Source: a virus (lineage: Duplodnaviria; Heunggongvirae; Uroviricota; Caudoviricetes). From it: a stretch of DNA of 34,867 nucleotides. The stretch lies in IMG/VR virus record IMGVR_UViG_2684622580_000006; one strand, given 5' to 3'. Of this stretch, positions 6,059 through 20,030 are shown piece after piece (the stretch's first letter is position 1; each line of letters opens with the position of its first letter). The notes below the pieces were generated by a model. It had not been told where the DNA came from. It ran no database searches and worked only from the letters and a program-made list of their open reading frames with translations. Made by a program: the position numbers and the translations under genes.

Positions 6059-6309
6059 TTTTTACGACTCAACGAAGTCTTGTTAGGATAATGTAAACAA
6101 ATCCGTTTTTTTAGATGTGAGTAATATTAGCAATGTTCATCTTAGAATGTGATATCGAAGGAAACTCGAAAATGATAATAGCTTTACACTATTGAGAAAA
6201 TTTGGTTGAGGCTTCAAAATAGAGCATTCATACGTGATCAATAGCCAGACTAAGCAAGCAACAGCTAAACCCCGTAACGTACTGATTAAATTGATAATTG
6301 AAGGTGCAT

Positions 6310-6597
6310 ATGTTAAAAGTTACTGGTCTTGATAAGCTTCAGAAAGAACTCAAGGATGCAAAGCGTATACTGAGTGAGCTGGATGGCGAGCTAGGAGTCG
6401 TAAAGTTTAACCCTAACGACCCTGCTAGCATCGAGTCGGCAATTCAAACAGTTAATCACATGATTGATGAACGCATTGGCGGATGTTCAACCAACTCCAT
6501 AGTCGGCTCGCTTGCGCAGCAGATGAAGGAAACATACAGAGAAGGCATTCTTAAAAAAGCTGCCGAAGCCAGATTGACTTCAAGTGAGGATGAGTAA
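6310..6597 (+). CDS. Small protein (95 aa), first gene of a two-gene cargo operon
   Basis: ATG at 6310 preceded by GAAGGTG; the track ORF starts at TTG 6298; stop overlaps the next ATG by 1 nt (TAATG). Confidence 0.6.
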   Translation: MLKVTGLDKLQKELKDAKRILSELDGELGVVKFNPNDPASIESAIQTVNHMIDERIGGCSTNSIVGSLAQQMKETYREGILKKAAEARLTSSEDE

Positions 6598-7493
6598 TGG
6601 CTCAAGATATTTTTTCTGAAATGAACAATGCTGTTCTGGATTTACAGGCTTCACAATACCAGACCTTTGAACGTCCACTCAAAAAGCTTGCTCAGCTTCT
6701 AAAACATTCCGATCTTGAATCATACAATGCAGACCTGACTGAAGGACTCAATCTTACAGAGTTTCTCGCAGAAAGTGAGAAGACTGGAGGAAGTATGGCT
6801 GGGAGTGCCCAGCTTGTCTGGCCAGATGATGCAAGAAAAACACTAGGCCTTACATTACTTTTGATTTTTAAGTTAGCAGAAGATCCTAATTATGCAATCA
6901 ACTTTGGACATCATTTTTTCTATTCCGGAAGTAAAGTTATAGCAGGCATTCATTCGATTACAGGACAACTTATCATTCCTTTCGTTAGAGATTACAAAAA
7001 TTATGTTCAGTCTAAGGGAAGCACAGAAACTATGTTGAAGCCGCAGTTTTCGAACAAAGTTTTCATTGTTCATGGTCATGATGATGGCGCCCGTGAAACA
7101 GTCGCAAGGTTTCTTGAACGTATAGGTTTAGAAGCAATCATATTACATGAGCAAGCTAATCAGGGACGAACTGTCATTGAGAAAGTTATAGCAAATAGTG
7201 ATGTTGGATTTGCTGTTGTATTGCTAACACCAGATGATGAAGGTTGTGCTAAAGGAGGAATACCAGAACCAAGGGCAAGGCAGAATGTAATGCTAGAATT
7301 AGGATATTTTATCGGGCGTTTAGGCAGAGAGAAAGTATGTGCACTAAAACGCGGCTCACTAGATATTCCAAGTGATTTTGCTGGGGTTGTTTGGGAAAAT
7401 ATGGATAGCAGTGGAGGCTGGAAGCAAGCACTCGCACGAGAACTTGAAGCTGCTGGTCACAATATTGATTGGAATAAAGCAATGCGGAGTTGA
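6597..7493 (+). CDS. Protein with a C-terminal TIR-like nucleotide-binding domain (COG4271 / PF10137-like); candidate defence effector
   Basis: C-terminal segment KVFIVHGHDDGARETVARFLERIGLEAIILHEQANQGRTVIEKVIANSDVGFAVVLLTPDDEG matches the consensus I remember for the 'predicted nucleotide-binding protein containing TIR-like domain' family; the N-terminal ~150 aa are unrecognised. Confidence 0.55.
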   Translation: MAQDIFSEMNNAVLDLQASQYQTFERPLKKLAQLLKHSDLESYNADLTEGLNLTEFLAESEKTGGSMAGSAQLVWPDDARKTLGLTLLLIFKLAEDPNYAINFGHHFFYSGSKVIAGIHSITGQLIIPFVRDYKNYVQSKGSTETMLKPQFSNKVFIVHGHDDGARETVARFLERIGLEAIILHEQANQGRTVIEKVIANSDVGFAVVLLTPDDEGCAKGGIPEPRARQNVMLELGYFIGRLGREKVCALKRGSLDIPSDFAGVVWENMDSSGGWKQALARELEAAGHNIDWNKAMRS

Positions 7494-7832
7494 TTTTATA
7501 TAGCTCCATTTTTAGCGATACTGGCGTTTCATCGACAATTAAAAATTTGGCTGCTGATTAGCCTAAAACGCAGCCAAATATAAATCATTAATGATATTGC
7601 TTAAATAAGTTTTAACGACTCATCTTCAGCGCCCCCCTCTAACAAAAAATAATAGTTACTCTGGGACTTCTGAAACACCGAGATGTTTCGAACGCTCAGC
7701 TTTTTTCTCGCGAGTGAAAATCCAAATCGTGTTCAGTTCATCATCGATAGACAGGAACTATCCCGAATTCCTCCCGCTGTAGAGATAAATACAGAGATAA
7801 ACCCTTATTCCCTCTACACTTGGAGATATTTA

Positions 7833-8372
7833 ATGGCTCGTAAAACTTATGTAAGCATGACTGAAATGGCTAAACGTTATGGTTATAGCCTCAACGCTAT
7901 CAAGAGCTGGCGTGCAGAAGGACTGCCCTACTCTGATAATCCTTCTGGTATTCCAGAAGACGAAGGCACTTTATGGATTGTTCAGAACAAAATTAACCCA
8001 ATGCGAAATATGTCCATCAAGGACGAATTCGAACGAGAAAAACTCCGTGAACAGGTGGCTAAAGCTGACTTGGCAACTTATGCAGCACAAGAAAAATCTG
8101 GTGAATTAATACCAGTGGATTATGTTCAAGCTGAGTTGAACCGTTTTTGTTCGCAACTGAAAGACAAAATCAGATTAATTCCGAAACAACACGCTTTGGA
8201 GATTCTTGAATCTGCCGTTTCAGTTGAAGAACTTCGTGATTGTCTGAAAGAGAAAATCGACCAGACGTTACGTGAGGTTGACAGTTTGTTTGAAGAACCT
8301 CAGTTACAGGACAATTCCTCAGACGAGTACAAAGAAAAGACAGAGAATGATACTGAGATTGACCTTGATTAA
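7833..8372 (+). CDS. Terminase small subunit (lambda Nu1-like)
   Basis: From the ATG at 7833 (GGAG 7 nt upstream) the product is 179 aa; N-terminal wHTH MTEMAKRYGYSLNAIKSWRAEGLPY resembles Nu1 LADIFGASIRTIQNWQEQGMPV; EREKLREQV resembles Nu1 ENEKLRREV; the track ORF is extended to 7683. Confidence 0.65.
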   Translation: MARKTYVSMTEMAKRYGYSLNAIKSWRAEGLPYSDNPSGIPEDEGTLWIVQNKINPMRNMSIKDEFEREKLREQVAKADLATYAAQEKSGELIPVDYVQAELNRFCSQLKDKIRLIPKQHALEILESAVSVEELRDCLKEKIDQTLREVDSLFEEPQLQDNSSDEYKEKTENDTEIDLD

Positions 8373-8387
8373 GGGAGCATCGCTCCC
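8373..8387. terminator. Stem-loop gggagc-atc-gctccc right after the terS stop
   Basis: 6-bp GC-rich stem immediately after the stop at 8370-8372; weak U-tract; same stem sequence as the hairpins at 4198, 13232 and 13505. Confidence 0.35.
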
Positions 8388-8600
8388 TTATCGCACAGCA
8401 CTTTTGAAGATCTGTTTCAGACGGTTGATAGAGACACGATCTGGTGAAAGATGTCGGATTTGTATACCACAATATTTCATTACATCATGATTACAAAGGA
8501 TTTGATGGCAGTTGTAATGCGATTCAACGCGATGCATCACCGTGTCCGTTCTTTTCAAAGAGCATTTGCAGTTTGCACACTGATGGTCAAATTTTGTCAT
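8388..8600 (-). CDS. Small Cys/His-rich protein (about 70 aa), possible zinc-binding
   Basis: Minus-strand ORF; ATG at 8600 preceded by GAGGAAG; TATAAATA on the minus strand at 8622-8629; product has QCANCKC and HYNCHQILCNH clusters. Confidence 0.4.
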   Translation of the reverse strand: MTKFDHQCANCKCSLKRTDTVMHRVESHYNCHQILCNHDVMKYCGIQIRHLSPDRVSINRLKQIFKSAVR

Positions 8601-8768
8601 AGATACTTCCTCTAAAACTGTATTTATACACTGTGCACAGTGATGATATATTACTATGCATGAACTTGATTTCATGCTTTATAAGTTTTATTGAGTCTCA
8701 CAAAATGATAGATTATCCTATGTGAATACAAACAGTTATAACCGACAGATTAATGGGTTGAGGACGTA

Positions 8769-9245
8769 ATGGACAATGAACTGAAAAAACTTATACACGC
8801 ATTCAGAAATGCTCTCGTTATGGCTGCGGATACACATTCATTTGGGTGTTTCAGTATGCCAAGATGGTCAGAGTTAAACAGTTTTCCACATGGTTGCTGT
8901 GACTTAGCAAGTAATTTTCTGGCTCAATATCTCACAGACTATGGATATGAGCCTGAAATAATTTGGTTTGAATGCTGCGAAGAACTAAACAAATATATCA
9001 AATCACACGTAGTTGTTAGGATTAACGATTACTATGTTGATTTAACACGAAATCAATTTGATGATCATAATGGAAGAGTATTGATTGAAGACAAATTCGG
9101 TTCCATTCCACGATTAATTAAACAAATAAAATCAATGAACTCAAATAATGTTGAGGATAGAAATATCAATATTAATACATTTAATTCAAGTGGGTATGAA
9201 CTCTACAGCTATATCAAAAAAATTGCGAATAATTTGATTAACTGA
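8769..9245 (+). CDS. Putative Cys-His-Asp fold protein (papain/transglutaminase-like), paralog 1
   Basis: 158 aa; Cys in FPHGCCDLASNFLAQYL, then SHVVVRINDYYVDLT; shares the H-x2-V-x-[VI]-x2-Y-x2-DL[ST] pattern with the next ORF; GAGGA SD; very AT-rich. Confidence 0.5.
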   Translation: MDNELKKLIHAFRNALVMAADTHSFGCFSMPRWSELNSFPHGCCDLASNFLAQYLTDYGYEPEIIWFECCEELNKYIKSHVVVRINDYYVDLTRNQFDDHNGRVLIEDKFGSIPRLIKQIKSMNSNNVEDRNININTFNSSGYELYSYIKKIANNLIN

Positions 9246-9341
9246 ATAAAATTATTTTAAAAAGGAAAAGAACCAGCATTGGAAATTTATTAAACATGTT
9301 GGTTTTATAATCGATAAAACAATCTGATTGGTGAGAATAAA

Positions 9342-9848
9342 ATGAATAATAATGAAATGAAGCAACAAATAAATGAATTGTCTTCTTATGTTCTGGACAA
9401 GACAATCAAAAAAGAGAAGGCATGTCTCTACATGAGTGCATATCTTTGCGCACTTATCAATGACAACATGAGAATAACCGCAAGATTGATTTCTGGGTCA
9501 CTTGTTATAAAAAACACTAAGATTTTCTCACATGAGCCTATACTGCCGATACTTACTTCGGGGAGCAATTATACCGGAGAATGGGATGGTCATGCTTGGG
9601 TTGAGGTCGCTGGATATATATGCGATTTATCAATCTTTTGTACAATTTTTTCAGAAAGTACATCAACTGAATTGCAGGATGTTTTCATGCAAACATTTGA
9701 TAGATACTATGAATTCTTAATCGCACCAAGAGAAAAACTAGAAGCAGCAGATATTTGCTATAAAGAATGCGAAGAATTAGGTAATGAACAAATAGATATT
9801 CTGATTCACTCAGGAATCAAATCAGGTATCTTAGTCAATCCAGAATGA
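9342..9848 (+). CDS. Putative transglutaminase-like cysteine peptidase fold protein, paralog 2
   Basis: 168 aa; KACLYMSAYLCAL (Cys), then GHAWVEVAGYICDLS, which matches the transglutaminase-like HAWxEV...D signature; stop overlaps the next start (ATGA). Confidence 0.5.
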   Translation: MNNNEMKQQINELSSYVLDKTIKKEKACLYMSAYLCALINDNMRITARLISGSLVIKNTKIFSHEPILPILTSGSNYTGEWDGHAWVEVAGYICDLSIFCTIFSESTSTELQDVFMQTFDRYYEFLIAPREKLEAADICYKECEELGNEQIDILIHSGIKSGILVNPE

Positions 9849-10567
9849 TTACAGAGGATAAAATGGAAGCAAACACTTTTATCGACCGTTTTTTTCATAG
9901 TTCTTATGAATTGACAGATTTTCGTCACGTTGGCGAACGAGACATTAACTCATTGTATACATTTCTGAATTTACTCCATTCTCTAAATGATCGTTTCAGC
10001 AAGGAATTTGGGATAGCTCAACTGGCCAAAAGGCCAGAGTTTAAATTATTACGTTTGATACGTAATTATTTTCAACATGTAGGGGATGTGGACGAATTCC
10101 GTCTATTTCAGACTCGTGATGCCATTTTGACTTCACATATGGAAATGATCATCATCCCAACAGCTTTAGTAGCTCGTGCCATCGAAAGTTTTCGAAACCA
10201 ACCACATAATAAGAAAGATCCAGTACGGGCTGAAAAAGAACTTTCATCCATTGCATCAGCTATCAGCGATTTTGAATATCTTTGTGATAATACGGATCTT
10301 TTTAGAGAAAACCCTCCTTTTCATGATACTGATAATACATATTTCTTAGGTTTTGACCTTTATAAATCCGTGTATAATATTACCAATATCGTAGCAGATA
10401 TATGCAGGAAAAGGGATGAATTTGCAATAAAAAAATGCGTTCAAGAGCTTGAAAAAGAATACACCGAAATGAATAACATACCAAAAGAAAATATATTATT
10501 ACTTGCGGGAAGTCCACCGCCACTACTAACAACCCAAGGTTTTGTGTTTCCTAAAAGGGATAGATAA
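9845..10567 (+). CDS. HEPN-motif protein (Abi-like putative RNase)
   Basis: 240 aa; contains LIRNYFQH, i.e. the R-[N]-x3-H (Rx4-6H) HEPN motif in its usual hydrophobic context; translationally coupled to the preceding gene. Confidence 0.45.
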   Translation: MITEDKMEANTFIDRFFHSSYELTDFRHVGERDINSLYTFLNLLHSLNDRFSKEFGIAQLAKRPEFKLLRLIRNYFQHVGDVDEFRLFQTRDAILTSHMEMIIIPTALVARAIESFRNQPHNKKDPVRAEKELSSIASAISDFEYLCDNTDLFRENPPFHDTDNTYFLGFDLYKSVYNITNIVADICRKRDEFAIKKCVQELEKEYTEMNNIPKENILLLAGSPPPLLTTQGFVFPKRDR

Positions 10568-10608
10568 ATTAAAGTAATTATAGTTCGTATAGATTTTCTT
10601 TTACCAAA

Positions 10609-10650
10609 TATTGTTGATTCGCTATTATACCTTAATAGCAATCAACAATT
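10609..10650. terminator. Imperfect 17-bp palindrome between convergent stops (bidirectional terminator or protein site)
   Basis: ttgttgatt(c)gctatta - tacct - taatagcaatcaacaa; lies exactly between the stops at 10567 (+) and 10656 (-). Confidence 0.4.
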
Positions 10651-12426: not shown

Positions 12427-13041
12427 ATGTACAAAAGAACTATCAACAACGTAACTTACAAAACCCGTTCTGAACTGGATACTGAGCCAACCGGATTCAG
12501 CGTTTATAAAACCGTTTTCAGTATCAACAATGAATCATTCGTTTATTACGGCAAACAAGCTTTCAACGGTCAGCCTGATATGTCGTATATCGGTTCTGGT
12601 CGCAGAGTTCAGGAAAAACTCGCTGAAATGACCGAGTCAGATATCGTTTATAAAATCGTTCTACAGAATTTTGAATCAGAACAAGAAGCGTATGACTTCG
12701 AATCTGAATGCATTCAATCAGCACGCAAATCGAAGGTTAATATTTTAAATATATCTAAAGGAAACTCCGGTGGTAAGGTCTTTGACAAAATGACAGAAGA
12801 ACAAATTAAACAACGTAACGCGAAAATCTCTATGAGCATGATGGGTCACGAAGTCTCTGATGAAACTCGTCGTAAAATCTCAGAAGCGAAATCTGGTCAG
12901 ACTCGCTCTGATAATACGAAACAAAAAATCGGTGATGCTCTGCACGGTCGCAAAACTGGACCTAAATCAGAAGAAACCAAACGCAGAATGTCAGAAGCAC
13001 ATAAAGCACGTCACGCTAACAAGGAGACAGCGAATGTCTAA
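12427..13041 (+). CDS. GIY-YIG homing endonuclease with NUMOD3-like repeats (Seg / I-TevI-like)
   Basis: 204 aa; N-terminal GFSVYK...FVYYGKQ...YIGSGRR (GIY-YIG spacing) and C-terminal repeats HEVSDETRRKISEAKSG / SEETKRRMSEAHK typical of NUMOD3. Confidence 0.75.
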   Translation: MYKRTINNVTYKTRSELDTEPTGFSVYKTVFSINNESFVYYGKQAFNGQPDMSYIGSGRRVQEKLAEMTESDIVYKIVLQNFESEQEAYDFESECIQSARKSKVNILNISKGNSGGKVFDKMTEEQIKQRNAKISMSMMGHEVSDETRRKISEAKSGQTRSDNTKQKIGDALHGRKTGPKSEETKRRMSEAHKARHANKETANV

Positions 13042-13929: not shown

Positions 13930-14039
13930 TTCGATGTTCTCCGTGTTGAGATGGATTGAACTTTAACAATCCAGGTCCGAGGTGCAAGCGTCCTGAAAAT
14001 TATTTGTTGGATTCTTCATAAATACACTCAGAGGTGACT

Positions 14040-15923
14040 ATGAAAAGTATCAACAAATTAAAGAAAATCATTAAAGCATCAAAAATTTTTATCATGCCTC
14101 CTGCTGATTACACGCCGTCAGAATGGGTCGAACAGAACTTAATCTTCCCTGATGGACCATATGCGGATCAGCCAATGCGACTTTTTGAGTTCCAGCGCGG
14201 AATGATTGACGCTATCAAAGGCAATAAGAAGAAAATCGTTCTTATGACTTCTGCACAGATCGGCAAAACGACGATTCTGAACGGTGTTCTGTTCTATAAA
14301 TCAGCTATAGATCCAGGCAACGCGGGTGTTTTACAGTCTACAGCGAAAGAAACGACACAATGGTTATCAGGTAAAATTAAACCGATGATTGATGCATCGG
14401 AAGAAATGCAGAAAATCGTTACTGATAAAAACGACAGAAATGCAGTTAATAACACCAGTCAGATTCAGCTACGAAATGGTGGTTTCTGGTATTTCATGAG
14501 TTTGAACTCTCCTTCTCACTTGCGTGGTAAAACTCTGCCATTGCTTCTGCTTGATGAAGTTGATGCTGTCGATACTGATACAGAAGAAGGCAACCCAATA
14601 ATGATTGCCGAACAGCGTGCAACAACTTTCGGTTCAGACGCTCGAATCTTTATCAGTTCGACGCCTACTGGCAAATACGGTGCCATCAATACTCAATACG
14701 AAGCATCCGATAGACGTAAATTCCATATCGATTGTCCTCATTGTGGTCGTTCTCATGAACTCGTTTGGGAAAACATTAAATTCGATTGGATTAAACATGA
14801 TGGTAAATCAGTACCAGATCCAGAAACTGCGCGTCTTGAATGTCCTTCTTGTAATGAAGCAATCTCAGAAGCACAACGAGCAAGAGCATTAGCAAACGGT
14901 AATTGGATTGTGACTAATCCAGAAGCTGATACAGCAGGATTCCATGTAAGTCGTTTATACAGTCCTATGAGTTCAATAAAATCTGTCGTTCAAGATTTCA
15001 AAAATGCTTATCAAACATTCAGTTTGTCAACGTTCTATAACACCGTATTAGGTCTGCCTTTTGATGATCTGAACGAGGATGTGGAAATCAGTAAATTAAA
15101 CGAACTGAAAACTGATATCAGTATCAGAAATATTCCAGAAGATTGTCTTTTCTTAACTGCGGGTGTTGACCAACAGCAAGACCGTTTAGAAGTAACCTTG
15201 ATGGGTCACAACGAACGAACCGTTTATATTCTTGCACATCGTAGCTTTATGACAATGAACGCTGAGGTTATCGATTCCCCTGCTTATAAAGAACTTCTTG
15301 CATACGTTAAAGCACCGTTCAGAACAGCTTTGGGAAGAAAGGTTCCTTTAGCGTGGGTGAACGTCGATAGCTCAAACGGTCGAGCAACTAAAACAATCTA
15401 TCGTTTCTGCTCTCAGTGGACAAACCTGAAAGCAATTAAAGGTGCCAGCTCAGTTGATGCCCCTTATGTTCCAACGAAAATCACGAAAACCGGTGGTTAT
15501 GAACTTTATATGATTGGTGTAAACCAAGGAAAAAACTTAGTTCGTGAACTGCTAAACAGAAGCGTGAAATCTGGAAATACACCAGTCAGAGTCGAAATCT
15601 CTGATGATGTTCCAGATGATTACTGCGAACAGCTTATGTCCGAAGAATTAAAACGCTCTGGCAATACTGTTAGATGGGTTATTAAACAAGGCGGTGTTCG
15701 TAACGAAGGTCTTGACTGCTTTAACTACGGTTATTGTGCGCGTCTGCAAGTTCTAGAGAAAATCAAATTTCACGAGTGGAGGAAACTCGCTGCTAAATCT
15801 GATATTGAAATGCCAGAAGAACAAAACGAAACAAATTCTCCTGTTATTCAAACTCCTGAACCACGTCGAAACATTATCAAACGAAACAGACCAGTTAATA
15901 AGCCTCGTGGTTTCGGATTATAA
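14040..15923 (+). CDS. Terminase large subunit (lambda gpA family)
   Basis: Walker A-like SAQIGKTT; FHIDCPHCGRSHELVW...ECPSCNEAI aligns to the lambda gpA zinc-ribbon region FHVACPHCGEEQYL; NEGLDCFNYGYCARL aligns to gpA NEALDCFVYALAAL; ATG 14040 with a GAGGTG SD (track start is GTG 14034). Confidence 0.9.
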   Translation: MKSINKLKKIIKASKIFIMPPADYTPSEWVEQNLIFPDGPYADQPMRLFEFQRGMIDAIKGNKKKIVLMTSAQIGKTTILNGVLFYKSAIDPGNAGVLQSTAKETTQWLSGKIKPMIDASEEMQKIVTDKNDRNAVNNTSQIQLRNGGFWYFMSLNSPSHLRGKTLPLLLLDEVDAVDTDTEEGNPIMIAEQRATTFGSDARIFISSTPTGKYGAINTQYEASDRRKFHIDCPHCGRSHELVWENIKFDWIKHDGKSVPDPETARLECPSCNEAISEAQRARALANGNWIVTNPEADTAGFHVSRLYSPMSSIKSVVQDFKNAYQTFSLSTFYNTVLGLPFDDLNEDVEISKLNELKTDISIRNIPEDCLFLTAGVDQQQDRLEVTLMGHNERTVYILAHRSFMTMNAEVIDSPAYKELLAYVKAPFRTALGRKVPLAWVNVDSSNGRATKTIYRFCSQWTNLKAIKGASSVDAPYVPTKITKTGGYELYMIGVNQGKNLVRELLNRSVKSGNTPVRVEISDDVPDDYCEQLMSEELKRSGNTVRWVIKQGGVRNEGLDCFNYGYCARLQVLEKIKFHEWRKLAAKSDIEMPEEQNETNSPVIQTPEPRRNIIKRNRPVNKPRGFGL

Positions 15924-18053: not shown

Positions 18054-20030
18054 ATGCTAAAACTAAAACGCGATTTCGAAGCCCAAGAAATTAAAATTAC
18101 TGATGATAGTTATGAAATTGCGTTCTCAAGTGAAACTCCTGTTGAACGTCAAATTCTCGATAGTTACGGTCAACCAATAACAGTTAATGAAATTCTTTTG
18201 CATGACGGTCCTCAAAATGCTGACCTCGAGCGAATCAATAACGGCGCTGCTCTGTTGTTTAACCATAATTTCGACAATCATCTAGGCGTTGTAATTCCCG
18301 GGTCTGTAAGAATCGATAATGACCGTAAAGGTCGCGCTGTTGTTAAATTCAGTAAAGTTGGTCAATTAGCTAACGAAATTAAATCAAAAATCGACGAAGG
18401 AACAATTTCTAAAATTTCTTTCGGCTACGACATTATTGAATATGAACTCAAAGGAGACGACTTGTTAGTTTCTCGTTGGAGTCCGTATGAAATTTCTTTC
18501 GTTACTGTTCCTGCTGACGACAAAGTTGGCTTGGGAAGACTTCTAAATACAGATGACAAAACAATTAACGTTGAAGGAAAAAGAATGAATTTTGGTGAAA
18601 TCACTCTCGAAGAACTTCAAACACTTTCTCGCGAACAACTTGCGGAAATGAATGTTGAAGAAATTGAAGCGATGCCAGAAGAACTTCGTTTGAAGCGTGA
18701 AGAACTATTAGCGGAAGAAGCTGATATTCAGGATATCAAAGAAGAAGTTCAAGAAGCATCCGAAGAACAGACTGTTCCAGAAAAACAGGAACAAGAAGTA
18801 CAGAAAACCGAAGCTGAAATTGAGGCTGAAAAAGCTGCTGAAATGGAAGCGCTAAATAAAGAAAAAGAACGAGTTGAAGAAATCGAAGATATTTCGGTTC
18901 GATACAAAGTTCCTTACGAAAAAACGAAATCTGCTATTGAAGACAAAATGTCTGTTTCTGATTTCAAACGCTCTATTAAACCTAATAACGCTCCTACGGT
19001 GGTAAGAAAAATGACTAAAGATACTCAAATTGAACTTGAAAACAAATTTAATCTGGCTAACGCAATGCGCGCAATTGCTGACGGTAAAGCACTGACTGGT
19101 GCAGAAGCTGAATATACTCAAGAAATGATTTCTAAACGTCAGAAAGCTGGTCGCGGTATCGTTTCTAACGGTCTGTATCTGCCTCTGTCAGTTCTGAAAG
19201 GCAAACGCGCTATTAACACTGTCCCGACTGTTTCCGCGATTCAGCAAGTTGAACAGCGTTATGACAGCTTTGTTGAAATGCTGCTTGCTCCGACTGTTCT
19301 AGGTCGTATGGGTGTTAACTTCCTGACTGGTCTGAATACTCCGATTTCTGTGCCTAAGCAAACTGCTAGTTCTGTTGATGCTTTCGGTTTCGTTGATGAA
19401 AACGGTGCTTCTCCAGAAGGCGAAAGCAAATTTGCTAACGTTCAGTTCATGCCGAAAACATTTACTGGTGGTAACCCGATTTCTCGTCAAGCGATGCTGA
19501 CTATGCCGAATCTTGAACAGTTTATTTCTGATCATATCGTTAAGCACTCACGCGCTAAACTGGAAGCTCTGATTCTGGGTTCTGCAACTGACGCTAAAGC
19601 TCCTGAATCTCTGGACGCTCAATTGACCGCTACTTCTATGGGCATGACCTATAAAGAATTCGTTAAAGCTGCTGCTAAAGCGAAAGGTAAAGGCGTTGAC
19701 ATGGACAAGTTCATGTATCTGATGGATGCCGAAACTGAAGGTGATCTGAAAACCACTCTGCGTGACGCTGGTGTTGCAGGTTACATCGTAGGTGAAGACA
19801 ACAAACTGGGTGGACACGAAGTTGTTGGTTCCGGTCTGGTTAAAGATGGCACTATCTTTGCTGGTGATTTCTCTGCTCTGACTGTTGCTGAGTGGGAAGG
19901 TATCGGTATTGATATCGACGACACAACTTATCGTAACGCAGGCGCTATCGTTCCTCGTGTTTGGGCTGACATCGACTGGAAAGTTACTGCTGACGACCGT
20001 CTGTTTAAATACGTAAAAACGGGAGCTTAA
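18054..20030 (+). CDS. Fused prohead protease - scaffold (coiled coil) - HK97-fold major capsid protein
   Basis: N-terminus carries U35/HK97-protease-like motifs (NHNFDNHLG; ISFGYD; YEISFVTVPAD); a central acidic coiled coil (about residues 190-290); the C-terminal 350 aa look like an HK97-type capsid protein. Confidence 0.75.
   Translation: MLKLKRDFEAQEIKITDDSYEIAFSSETPVERQILDSYGQPITVNEILLHDGPQNADLERINNGAALLFNHNFDNHLGVVIPGSVRIDNDRKGRAVVKFSKVGQLANEIKSKIDEGTISKISFGYDIIEYELKGDDLLVSRWSPYEISFVTVPADDKVGLGRLLNTDDKTINVEGKRMNFGEITLEELQTLSREQLAEMNVEEIEAMPEELRLKREELLAEEADIQDIKEEVQEASEEQTVPEKQEQEVQKTEAEIEAEKAAEMEALNKEKERVEEIEDISVRYKVPYEKTKSAIEDKMSVSDFKRSIKPNNAPTVVRKMTKDTQIELENKFNLANAMRAIADGKALTGAEAEYTQEMISKRQKAGRGIVSNGLYLPLSVLKGKRAINTVPTVSAIQQVEQRYDSFVEMLLAPTVLGRMGVNFLTGLNTPISVPKQTASSVDAFGFVDENGASPEGESKFANVQFMPKTFTGGNPISRQAMLTMPNLEQFISDHIVKHSRAKLEALILGSATDAKAPESLDAQLTATSMGMTYKEFVKAAAKAKGKGVDMDKFMYLMDAETEGDLKTTLRDAGVAGYIVGEDNKLGGHEVVGSGLVKDGTIFAGDFSALTVAEWEGIGIDIDDTTYRNAGAIVPRVWADIDWKVTADDRLFKYVKTGA

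Follow-up and report, generated by a model that had tools for sequence, protein, structure and literature searches.

Three cargo genes in the terS–terL interval of an Escherichia coli prophage, among them a candidate stand-alone HEPN-type ribonuclease

Introduction

Do three adjacent genes between the terminase genes of a prophage make up one new defence system, or are they separate pieces of cargo that share a place? The question is raised by the IMG/VR virus record IMGVR_UViG_2684622580_000006, a 34,867-nucleotide (nt) stretch of Caudoviricetes DNA whose full length we call the window. An earlier note on this DNA had pointed to three open reading frames (ORFs) on one strand, and all three are where it placed them, at 8769-9245 (158 amino acids, aa), 9342-9848 (168 aa), and 9845-10567 (240 aa); we call them A, B, and C. 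The earlier note took A and B for paralogous proteins of a Cys-His-Asp fold, C for a protein carrying the motif of a HEPN ribonuclease (RNase), and the three together for a candidate toxin or abortive-infection system. The explanation that we favour, with moderate confidence, is a different one, namely that these are three independent cargo genes in a variable terS–terL hotspot of an E. coli/Enterobacter prophage, of which C would be a solo HEPN-type abortive-infection RNase. We find no evidence for a new multi-component system at this locus, and the three-gene architecture is unsupported. What the locus does hold are new families inside known superfamilies, HEPN-like and papain/transglutaminase-like.

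Distribution of the three families

Hidden Markov models (HMMs) of the three families were run across all fetched loci, and they place A, B, and C together only in prophages of the window type, from E. coli, Enterobacter, and three IMG/VR contigs. The proteins are 94-100% identical among these, so that the co-occurrence of the trio reflects recent common descent. Co-occurrence in other genomes had been set in advance as the observation by which a single three-gene system was to be judged, and it does not extend beyond this one prophage lineage, so that the claim fails this test. In 14 other contexts, most of them defence islands, C is present while A and B are absent; these are seven contigs (Serratia, Klebsiella, Rahnella, Pseudomonas, Alloalcanivorax, Litorimonas, and Oxalobacter), one plasmid-like contig, a Serratia plasmid, a Klebsiella plasmid, and four viral contigs; a profile scan of genome contigs for C gave four loci. 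A occurs without the other two in at least four contexts, and B occurs alone in four. Because the distributions of the three families are independent, we consider that the genes work independently. A comparison with 50,697 phage genomes returned no match, either by tblastn of A, B, and C or by megablast of the region; the trio fits no PADLOC model; and in the literature, searched for the protein accessions and for a transglutaminase together with HEPN in a defence context, we found no description of the trio.

Gene C and its family

The earlier note had C translationally coupled to B through an ATGA overlap, and an alternative ATG at 9845 (240 aa, 9845-10567) does overlap the stop codon of B. 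We place the start at 9863 instead, because all 24 aligned homologs begin at the methionine there, the Prokaryotic Genome Annotation Pipeline (PGAP) makes the same call, and a ribosome-binding site, AGAGGA, lies 6 nt upstream. Gene C therefore probably spans 9863-10567 on the plus strand, with a gap of 14 nt to B, and encodes a protein of 234 aa with a helical N-terminal domain and then a C-terminal domain lacking an assigned function. Its coding status is supported by the 15 synonymous and 9 non-synonymous changes that separate it from the Enterobacter copy.

The Rx4H motif RNYFQH, found where it had been noticed, occupies R67-N68-Y69-F70-Q71-H72 (codons at 10061-10078, plus strand), has N after R, and is the predicted RNase active site. 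Homologs of C fall into 49 clusters in Proteobacteria, on plasmids, in prophages, and in defence islands, none of them with a Pfam domain. In 25 family sequences, 39-61% identical to C, R67, N68, Y69, and H72 are invariant within LLRxIRNYxHH; D43 is likewise invariant and R44 nearly so, both within a predicted helix at residues 28-49. The AlphaFold2 model of C (predicted local distance difference test, pLDDT, 88.4) places RNYFQH at the C-terminal end of a helix at residues 58-73. In HEPN proteins, Rx4-6H stands at the end of helix 3, with N, D, or H usually following, and an acidic residue in helix 2 accompanies the motif (Anantharaman et al. 2013; PMC3710099). C shows all three features, that is, the position of the motif at the helix end, N after R, and the acidic helix-2 residue.

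Database comparisons give a fainter picture. Scans of Pfam, NCBIfam, PADLOC, and PHROG yield no match to C above threshold, a Foldseek search of its model against the PDB found no match, and PDB sequences searched with the A-, B-, and C-family profiles gave none that was meaningful. Sub-threshold matches to Ribonuc_2-5A (KEN) occur in 4 of the 25 C-family members, the best at E 0.037; the sole one inspected, in P0033 (E 0.1), is a local alignment over the motif, residues 60-81. Abi-type HEPN proteins (AbiD/F Abi_2, AbiU2, AbiV, and AbiJ) and KEN domains (RNase L and Ire1; PF06479) offer a further likeness, as LLRxIRNYxHH of C resembles their "hRNxxxH". We consider C to be HEPN-like with moderate confidence, because an invariant RN-x3-H stands, in alignment and model, at the position that defines the HEPN active site; for the fold itself, the model points to HEPN weakly.

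Outside the window-type prophage, C-family genes are mostly monocistronic, and all-against-all BLAST and HMM searches of the fetched loci found no partner of C common to several clades. Their neighbours include a type II CBASS (cyclic oligonucleotide-based antiphage signaling system; cyclase and SAVED-HNH), Ppl, PD-T4-5, PD-T4-6, and PDC-S48, as well as an Abi_2 protein, Mrr and PLD nucleases, SocA, SymE, and ParE; profile comparison (hhalign) of the C family with the neighbouring Abi_2 protein gives a probability of 0.4%. C defines an unannotated HEPN-like family, which the present models of Pfam, PADLOC, PHROG, and NCBIfam all miss.

Genes A and B

Gene A (8769-9245, plus strand) encodes a 158-aa cytoplasmic protein, a predicted Cys-His-Asp enzyme of the papain/transglutaminase superfamily, and gene B (9342-9848, plus strand) a 168-aa protein of transglutaminase/papain fold. 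The pattern H-x2-V-x-[VI]-x2-Y-x2-DL[ST], by which the two had been linked, is present at residue 80 of A (HVVVRINDYYVDLT) and residue 84 of B (HAWVEVAGYICDLS), and the HAWVEV motif is found in B.

An exhaustive HMMER search returned 152 representatives of B relatives. In 40 aligned sequences, 23-46% identical to B, C28, H84, W86, and S97 do not vary, and conservation of D95 reaches at least 90%; the triad of B is thus C28 (9423-9425), H84 (9591-9593), and D95 (9624-9626). In the AlphaFold model of B (pLDDT 93.8, predicted template modeling score 0.90), a helix begins at C28, and H84 and D95 sit on strands next to each other, an arrangement that fits the papain-like core, in which the Cys at a helix N-terminus packs against a beta-sheet bearing the His and Asp. 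Conservation and model strongly suggest for B a transglutaminase/papain fold and a Cys-His-Asp triad that is kept across the family.

The nearest described family appears to be DUF2026 (PF09641; structure 2hly, Atu2299), which Ozhelvaci and Steczkiewicz (JBC 2023; PMC10318531) place in a transglutaminase/deamidase cluster of papain-like enzymes, with function listed as unknown. B lies below the Pfam gathering thresholds both for DUF2026 (15.7 versus 25 bits) and for Transglut_core (15.4 versus 23), which is why we treat it as a sister family and not as a DUF2026 member; 5 of the 40 B relatives match DUF2026 at E < 0.01, and at its N-terminus B lacks about 30 residues relative to the typical 190-aa members. 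The best match of the B-family profile among PDB sequences is SpvD, at E 0.19 and spanning the catalytic Cys. Against the Enterobacter copy, B has 9 synonymous and 10 non-synonymous changes, a lower constraint than in A or C.

For A, the search returned 100 clusters of homologs, and in the 28 sequences aligned, all from Enterobacterales, C27, C44, H80, and D91 are invariant. The candidate catalytic residues are C44 (8898-8900), H80 (9006-9008), and D91 (9039-9041). In Pfam, A has sub-threshold matches only, to YunG and Mg296. Its coding status is supported by a substitution pattern of 12 synonymous and 3 non-synonymous codon changes relative to the Enterobacter copy.

Whether A and B are paralogs, as the earlier note had it, needs a divided answer. 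Pairwise BLASTP between them is not significant (E 0.73), so that a duplicated pair is not what we see, while hhalign of the family profiles (89 A-family and 126 B-family sequences) gives a probability of 79% at E 1.6e-5 over 61 columns, with C44/C28, H80/H84, and D91/D95 aligned. The controls, A versus C and B versus C, give probabilities of 0.2-0.3%. Because the profile match aligns the triad while BLASTP does not detect the pair, A and B are, at the level of sequence profiles, remote members of one superfamily. Searched one by one, none of the three proteins reaches threshold in Pfam, PADLOC, PHROGs, or NCBIfam. The note's guesses at motif and fold have held up, with the triad and model of B, the same three residues invariant in A, and the invariant RN-x3-H of C.

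In PLSDB, 505 plasmids carry A-family genes, and kfrA often lies upstream of them. On IncFIB plasmids, among them pO157 (NC_002128.1; pO157p27 and p26, locus L032 4297-5597), the A homolog forms a bicistron with a 4-nt overlap with the upstream kfrA-like gene, adjoining RepFIB and ccdAB; the same kfrA-A bicistron with a 4-nt overlap is found in Klebsiella (L011-L014, 4381-5504), and an IncX1 plasmid has its A homolog close to parA and parG. Among divergent relatives of B whose context could be read, the closest, P0152 (48% identical), adjoins ardA, an orphan methylase, and umuDC. The A family, carried by enterobacterial plasmids including pO157, is a family of uncharacterised Cys-His-Asp enzymes of mobile elements, and the B family a second one.

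The terS–terL interval as a cargo slot

The cluster lies between the two terminase genes, as had been described, with terS at 7683-8372 (phrog_57, E 6e-20) and terL at 14034-15923 (annotated as gpA terminase). By blastn, homology to sibling prophages stops at 8215 and resumes at 10649, which delimits a swappable cargo cassette in the terS–terL slot (8216-10648, GC content 34.3%) holding the 3' end of terS, a non-coding stretch, and A, B, and C. Because these homology breaks flank the block, the three genes appear to have arrived, or to persist, as one cassette. In the sibling prophage of E. coli MS 115-1 (NZ_CP146665; L044 3099-6007), a reverse transcriptase/endonuclease of the retron Ec67 family replaces exactly this cassette, and in strain PSS-15 (L043 4440-5380) unrelated small ORFs fill the same slot. 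The terS–terL interval is therefore a defence/cargo hotspot in this prophage family. This setting shows in the retron of the sibling's slot and in a PDC-S35 TIR gene upstream of the cluster in the window. With Ec67, the present cassette, and the TIR gene nearby, the slot could be mined for more cargo. The AT-richness of the cluster is also confirmed, at 33.7% GC, where the prophage has 38.8% and the host flank 52.7%.

At the right edge of the cassette (boundary 10649) lies a stem-loop at 10610-10648 (plus strand), a perfect 17-bp stem followed by a U-rich tract, with a centroid energy of -17.6 kcal/mol and a z-score of -3.2; an equally good fold arose in none of 200 shuffles. It is likely a terminator between C and a convergent 202-aa coiled-coil ORF. 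The gap between A and B holds a weak terminator-like hairpin (z -1.8), and that between B and C holds no hairpin and no terminator. No relevant RNA family or repeat turned up when the cassette was scanned with Rfam and for repeats.

A Cys/His-rich ORF of 95 aa on the minus strand, between terS and A (8388-8675), was considered as a fourth gene and rejected. It is not called by PGAP, and it is probably non-coding, because it shows 5 synonymous and 14 non-synonymous changes relative to the Enterobacter copy and no third-position bias.

A proposed solo HEPN-type protein and its alternatives

The closest parallel to C that we can offer is HepS of Gifsy-1 (Sargen et al., Nature 2026; PMC13043305), an HEPN protein of abortive infection that the prophage encodes alone, without a partner gene. 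HepS stays latent, cleaving tRNA once it has encountered a phage tail-tip protein. Like HepS, C is prophage-encoded, is shorter than 250 aa, carries Rx4H, has no conserved partner, and lies among prophage accessory genes; it differs in that the two share no detectable sequence similarity. HepS is the model for the mechanism that we propose for C, in which an invading phage activates a latent RNase; the RNase activity, latency, and trigger of C, like the substrates of A and B, are inferred. C would be a stand-alone HEPN-type ribonuclease of the abortive-infection kind, produced in a latent form and switched on by infection with another phage, probably through its C-terminal domain. Once active, it would cleave RNA (tRNA or mRNA) at a metal-independent site that R67, N68, and H72 would form, probably between the two subunits of a dimer, with D43 from helix 2 predicted nearby. 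We read A and B as cytoplasmic Cys-His-Asp enzymes of the transglutaminase/papain superfamily, probably proteases or deamidases whose target is a protein. Mobile elements carry them singly, A beside kfrA in plasmid maintenance regions and B-like genes beside plasmid anti-restriction genes, contexts that fit maintenance or anti-defence as well as defence. Should C prove to be a solo abortive-infection RNase of the HepS type, it would represent a further single-protein prophage defence family, whose new C-terminal domain may sense the phage.

Some of our observations weigh against this explanation. The 14-nt gap between B and C lacks a terminator, and the three genes travel as one block in this lineage; the fold of A is assigned by profile comparison; and one C clade has a closely linked downstream ORF. 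In this Serratia/Klebsiella/Rahnella clade, an ORF of 239 aa begins about 8-20 nt 3' of the C-family gene (L002 6695-7414; L010 6686-7417; L030 5308-6027; L039 683-1414; L040 4694-5413), is conserved, with 85-90% identity among three of the five loci, and matches nothing in Pfam or the PDB. Perhaps it serves the HEPN-like protein as a partner in this clade, and C may sometimes be partner-dependent.

Could B be such a partner in the window? MNT antitoxins AMPylate HepT toxins, and protease-gated effectors offer a comparable case. By analogy, B and C could form a two-gene module in which B controls the HEPN RNase C by cleavage, deamidation, or cross-linking, with A as an unrelated neighbour. We regard this as unlikely, although it has points in its favour: B and C lie on the same strand, 14 nt apart (or with a 4-nt overlap if the start at 9845 is used), with no hairpin between them and a weak one between A and B; they are always together in the prophage lineage; and HEPN toxins commonly need an enzymatic or binding partner (PMC7641770). 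However, C lacks a B-family gene in the 14 other contexts and B lacks C in four, the genes that flank C in other clades show no relation to B, and constraint on B is relaxed between the E. coli and Enterobacter copies. The comparison with HEPN-MNT pairs (HepT-MntA) cuts both ways, as the HEPN-type C adjoins an enzyme gene able in principle to modify it, whereas C is much larger than the minimal HepT and its family as a whole does not keep the partner gene; no gene with a nucleotidyltransferase domain lies beside C in the window or at homolog loci. A stricter version, with B, perhaps together with A, as a covalent regulator or sensor that gates C by proteolysis, deamidation, or cross-linking, is slightly more doubtful still. 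If it were true, the pairing would be previously undescribed, and the solo C genes elsewhere would have lost their partner or be self-gating.

It is, in our view, as improbable as the two-gene module that the cassette holds no defence genes at all, that A and B are establishment, anti-defence, or maintenance factors, and that C is a non-catalytic helical protein or a regulator that uses RNxxxH otherwise. The contexts of A in plasmid backbone regions (kfrA, RepFIB, ccdAB, parA) and of the B relative P0152, whose neighbours are those of a typical plasmid leading region, fit this idea, as does the weak structural indication that C is HEPN. Against it, C-family genes occur repeatedly amid bona fide defence genes, and that R, N, and H never vary at this canonical HEPN site in the aligned sequences speaks for catalysis.

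A single system of all three genes is very unlikely, for though they form one swappable cassette in the slot that holds retron Ec67 in a sibling prophage, share a strand and a low GC content, and include two members of one superfamily, they occur together only in one lineage of nearly identical proteins, A is conserved with kfrA on hundreds of plasmids, a terminator-like hairpin, if a weak one, separates A from B, and no PADLOC model fits. It is the tight spacing of B and C that leads us to keep some probability for the two-gene module and, less so, for the trio.

The surrounding prophage

Four complete E. coli chromosomes carry the window region at 100% identity. On one of these, NZ_AP027790, it sits inside a prophage integrated beside ybiT via a serine recombinase, and PGAP labels A, B, and C all as "hypothetical protein". 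The gene order is lysozyme, a 99-aa ORF, the TIR protein, terS, A, B, C, and two minus-strand ORFs, followed by a NUMOD3 homing endonuclease, a GntR-like gene, terL, portal, and capsid.

The TIR-domain gene (6597-7493) matches CAP12-PCTIR_TIR in Pfam at E 5e-38 and PDC-S35 in PADLOC at E 1e-70. The 99-aa ORF precedes it with one base in common, the pair covering 6298-7493 just upstream of terS, and the TIR protein (WP_000046021.1) is identical in the E. coli MS 115-1 sibling prophage. Since the pair is absent from the Enterobacter relatives, it marks a second variable cargo slot. Between terS and terL lies the NUMOD3 homing-endonuclease gene (12427-13041; Pfam NUMOD3 E 1.6e-9; phrog_314; PADLOC HEase), which is conserved in the Enterobacter relatives. 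The prohead protease/capsid gene is an intact ORF of 658 aa in the window (18054-20030). In strain 2017.06.05CC (L001 24792-26020), an IS3-family element splits this gene, and the prophage copy of that strain is for this reason probably defective.
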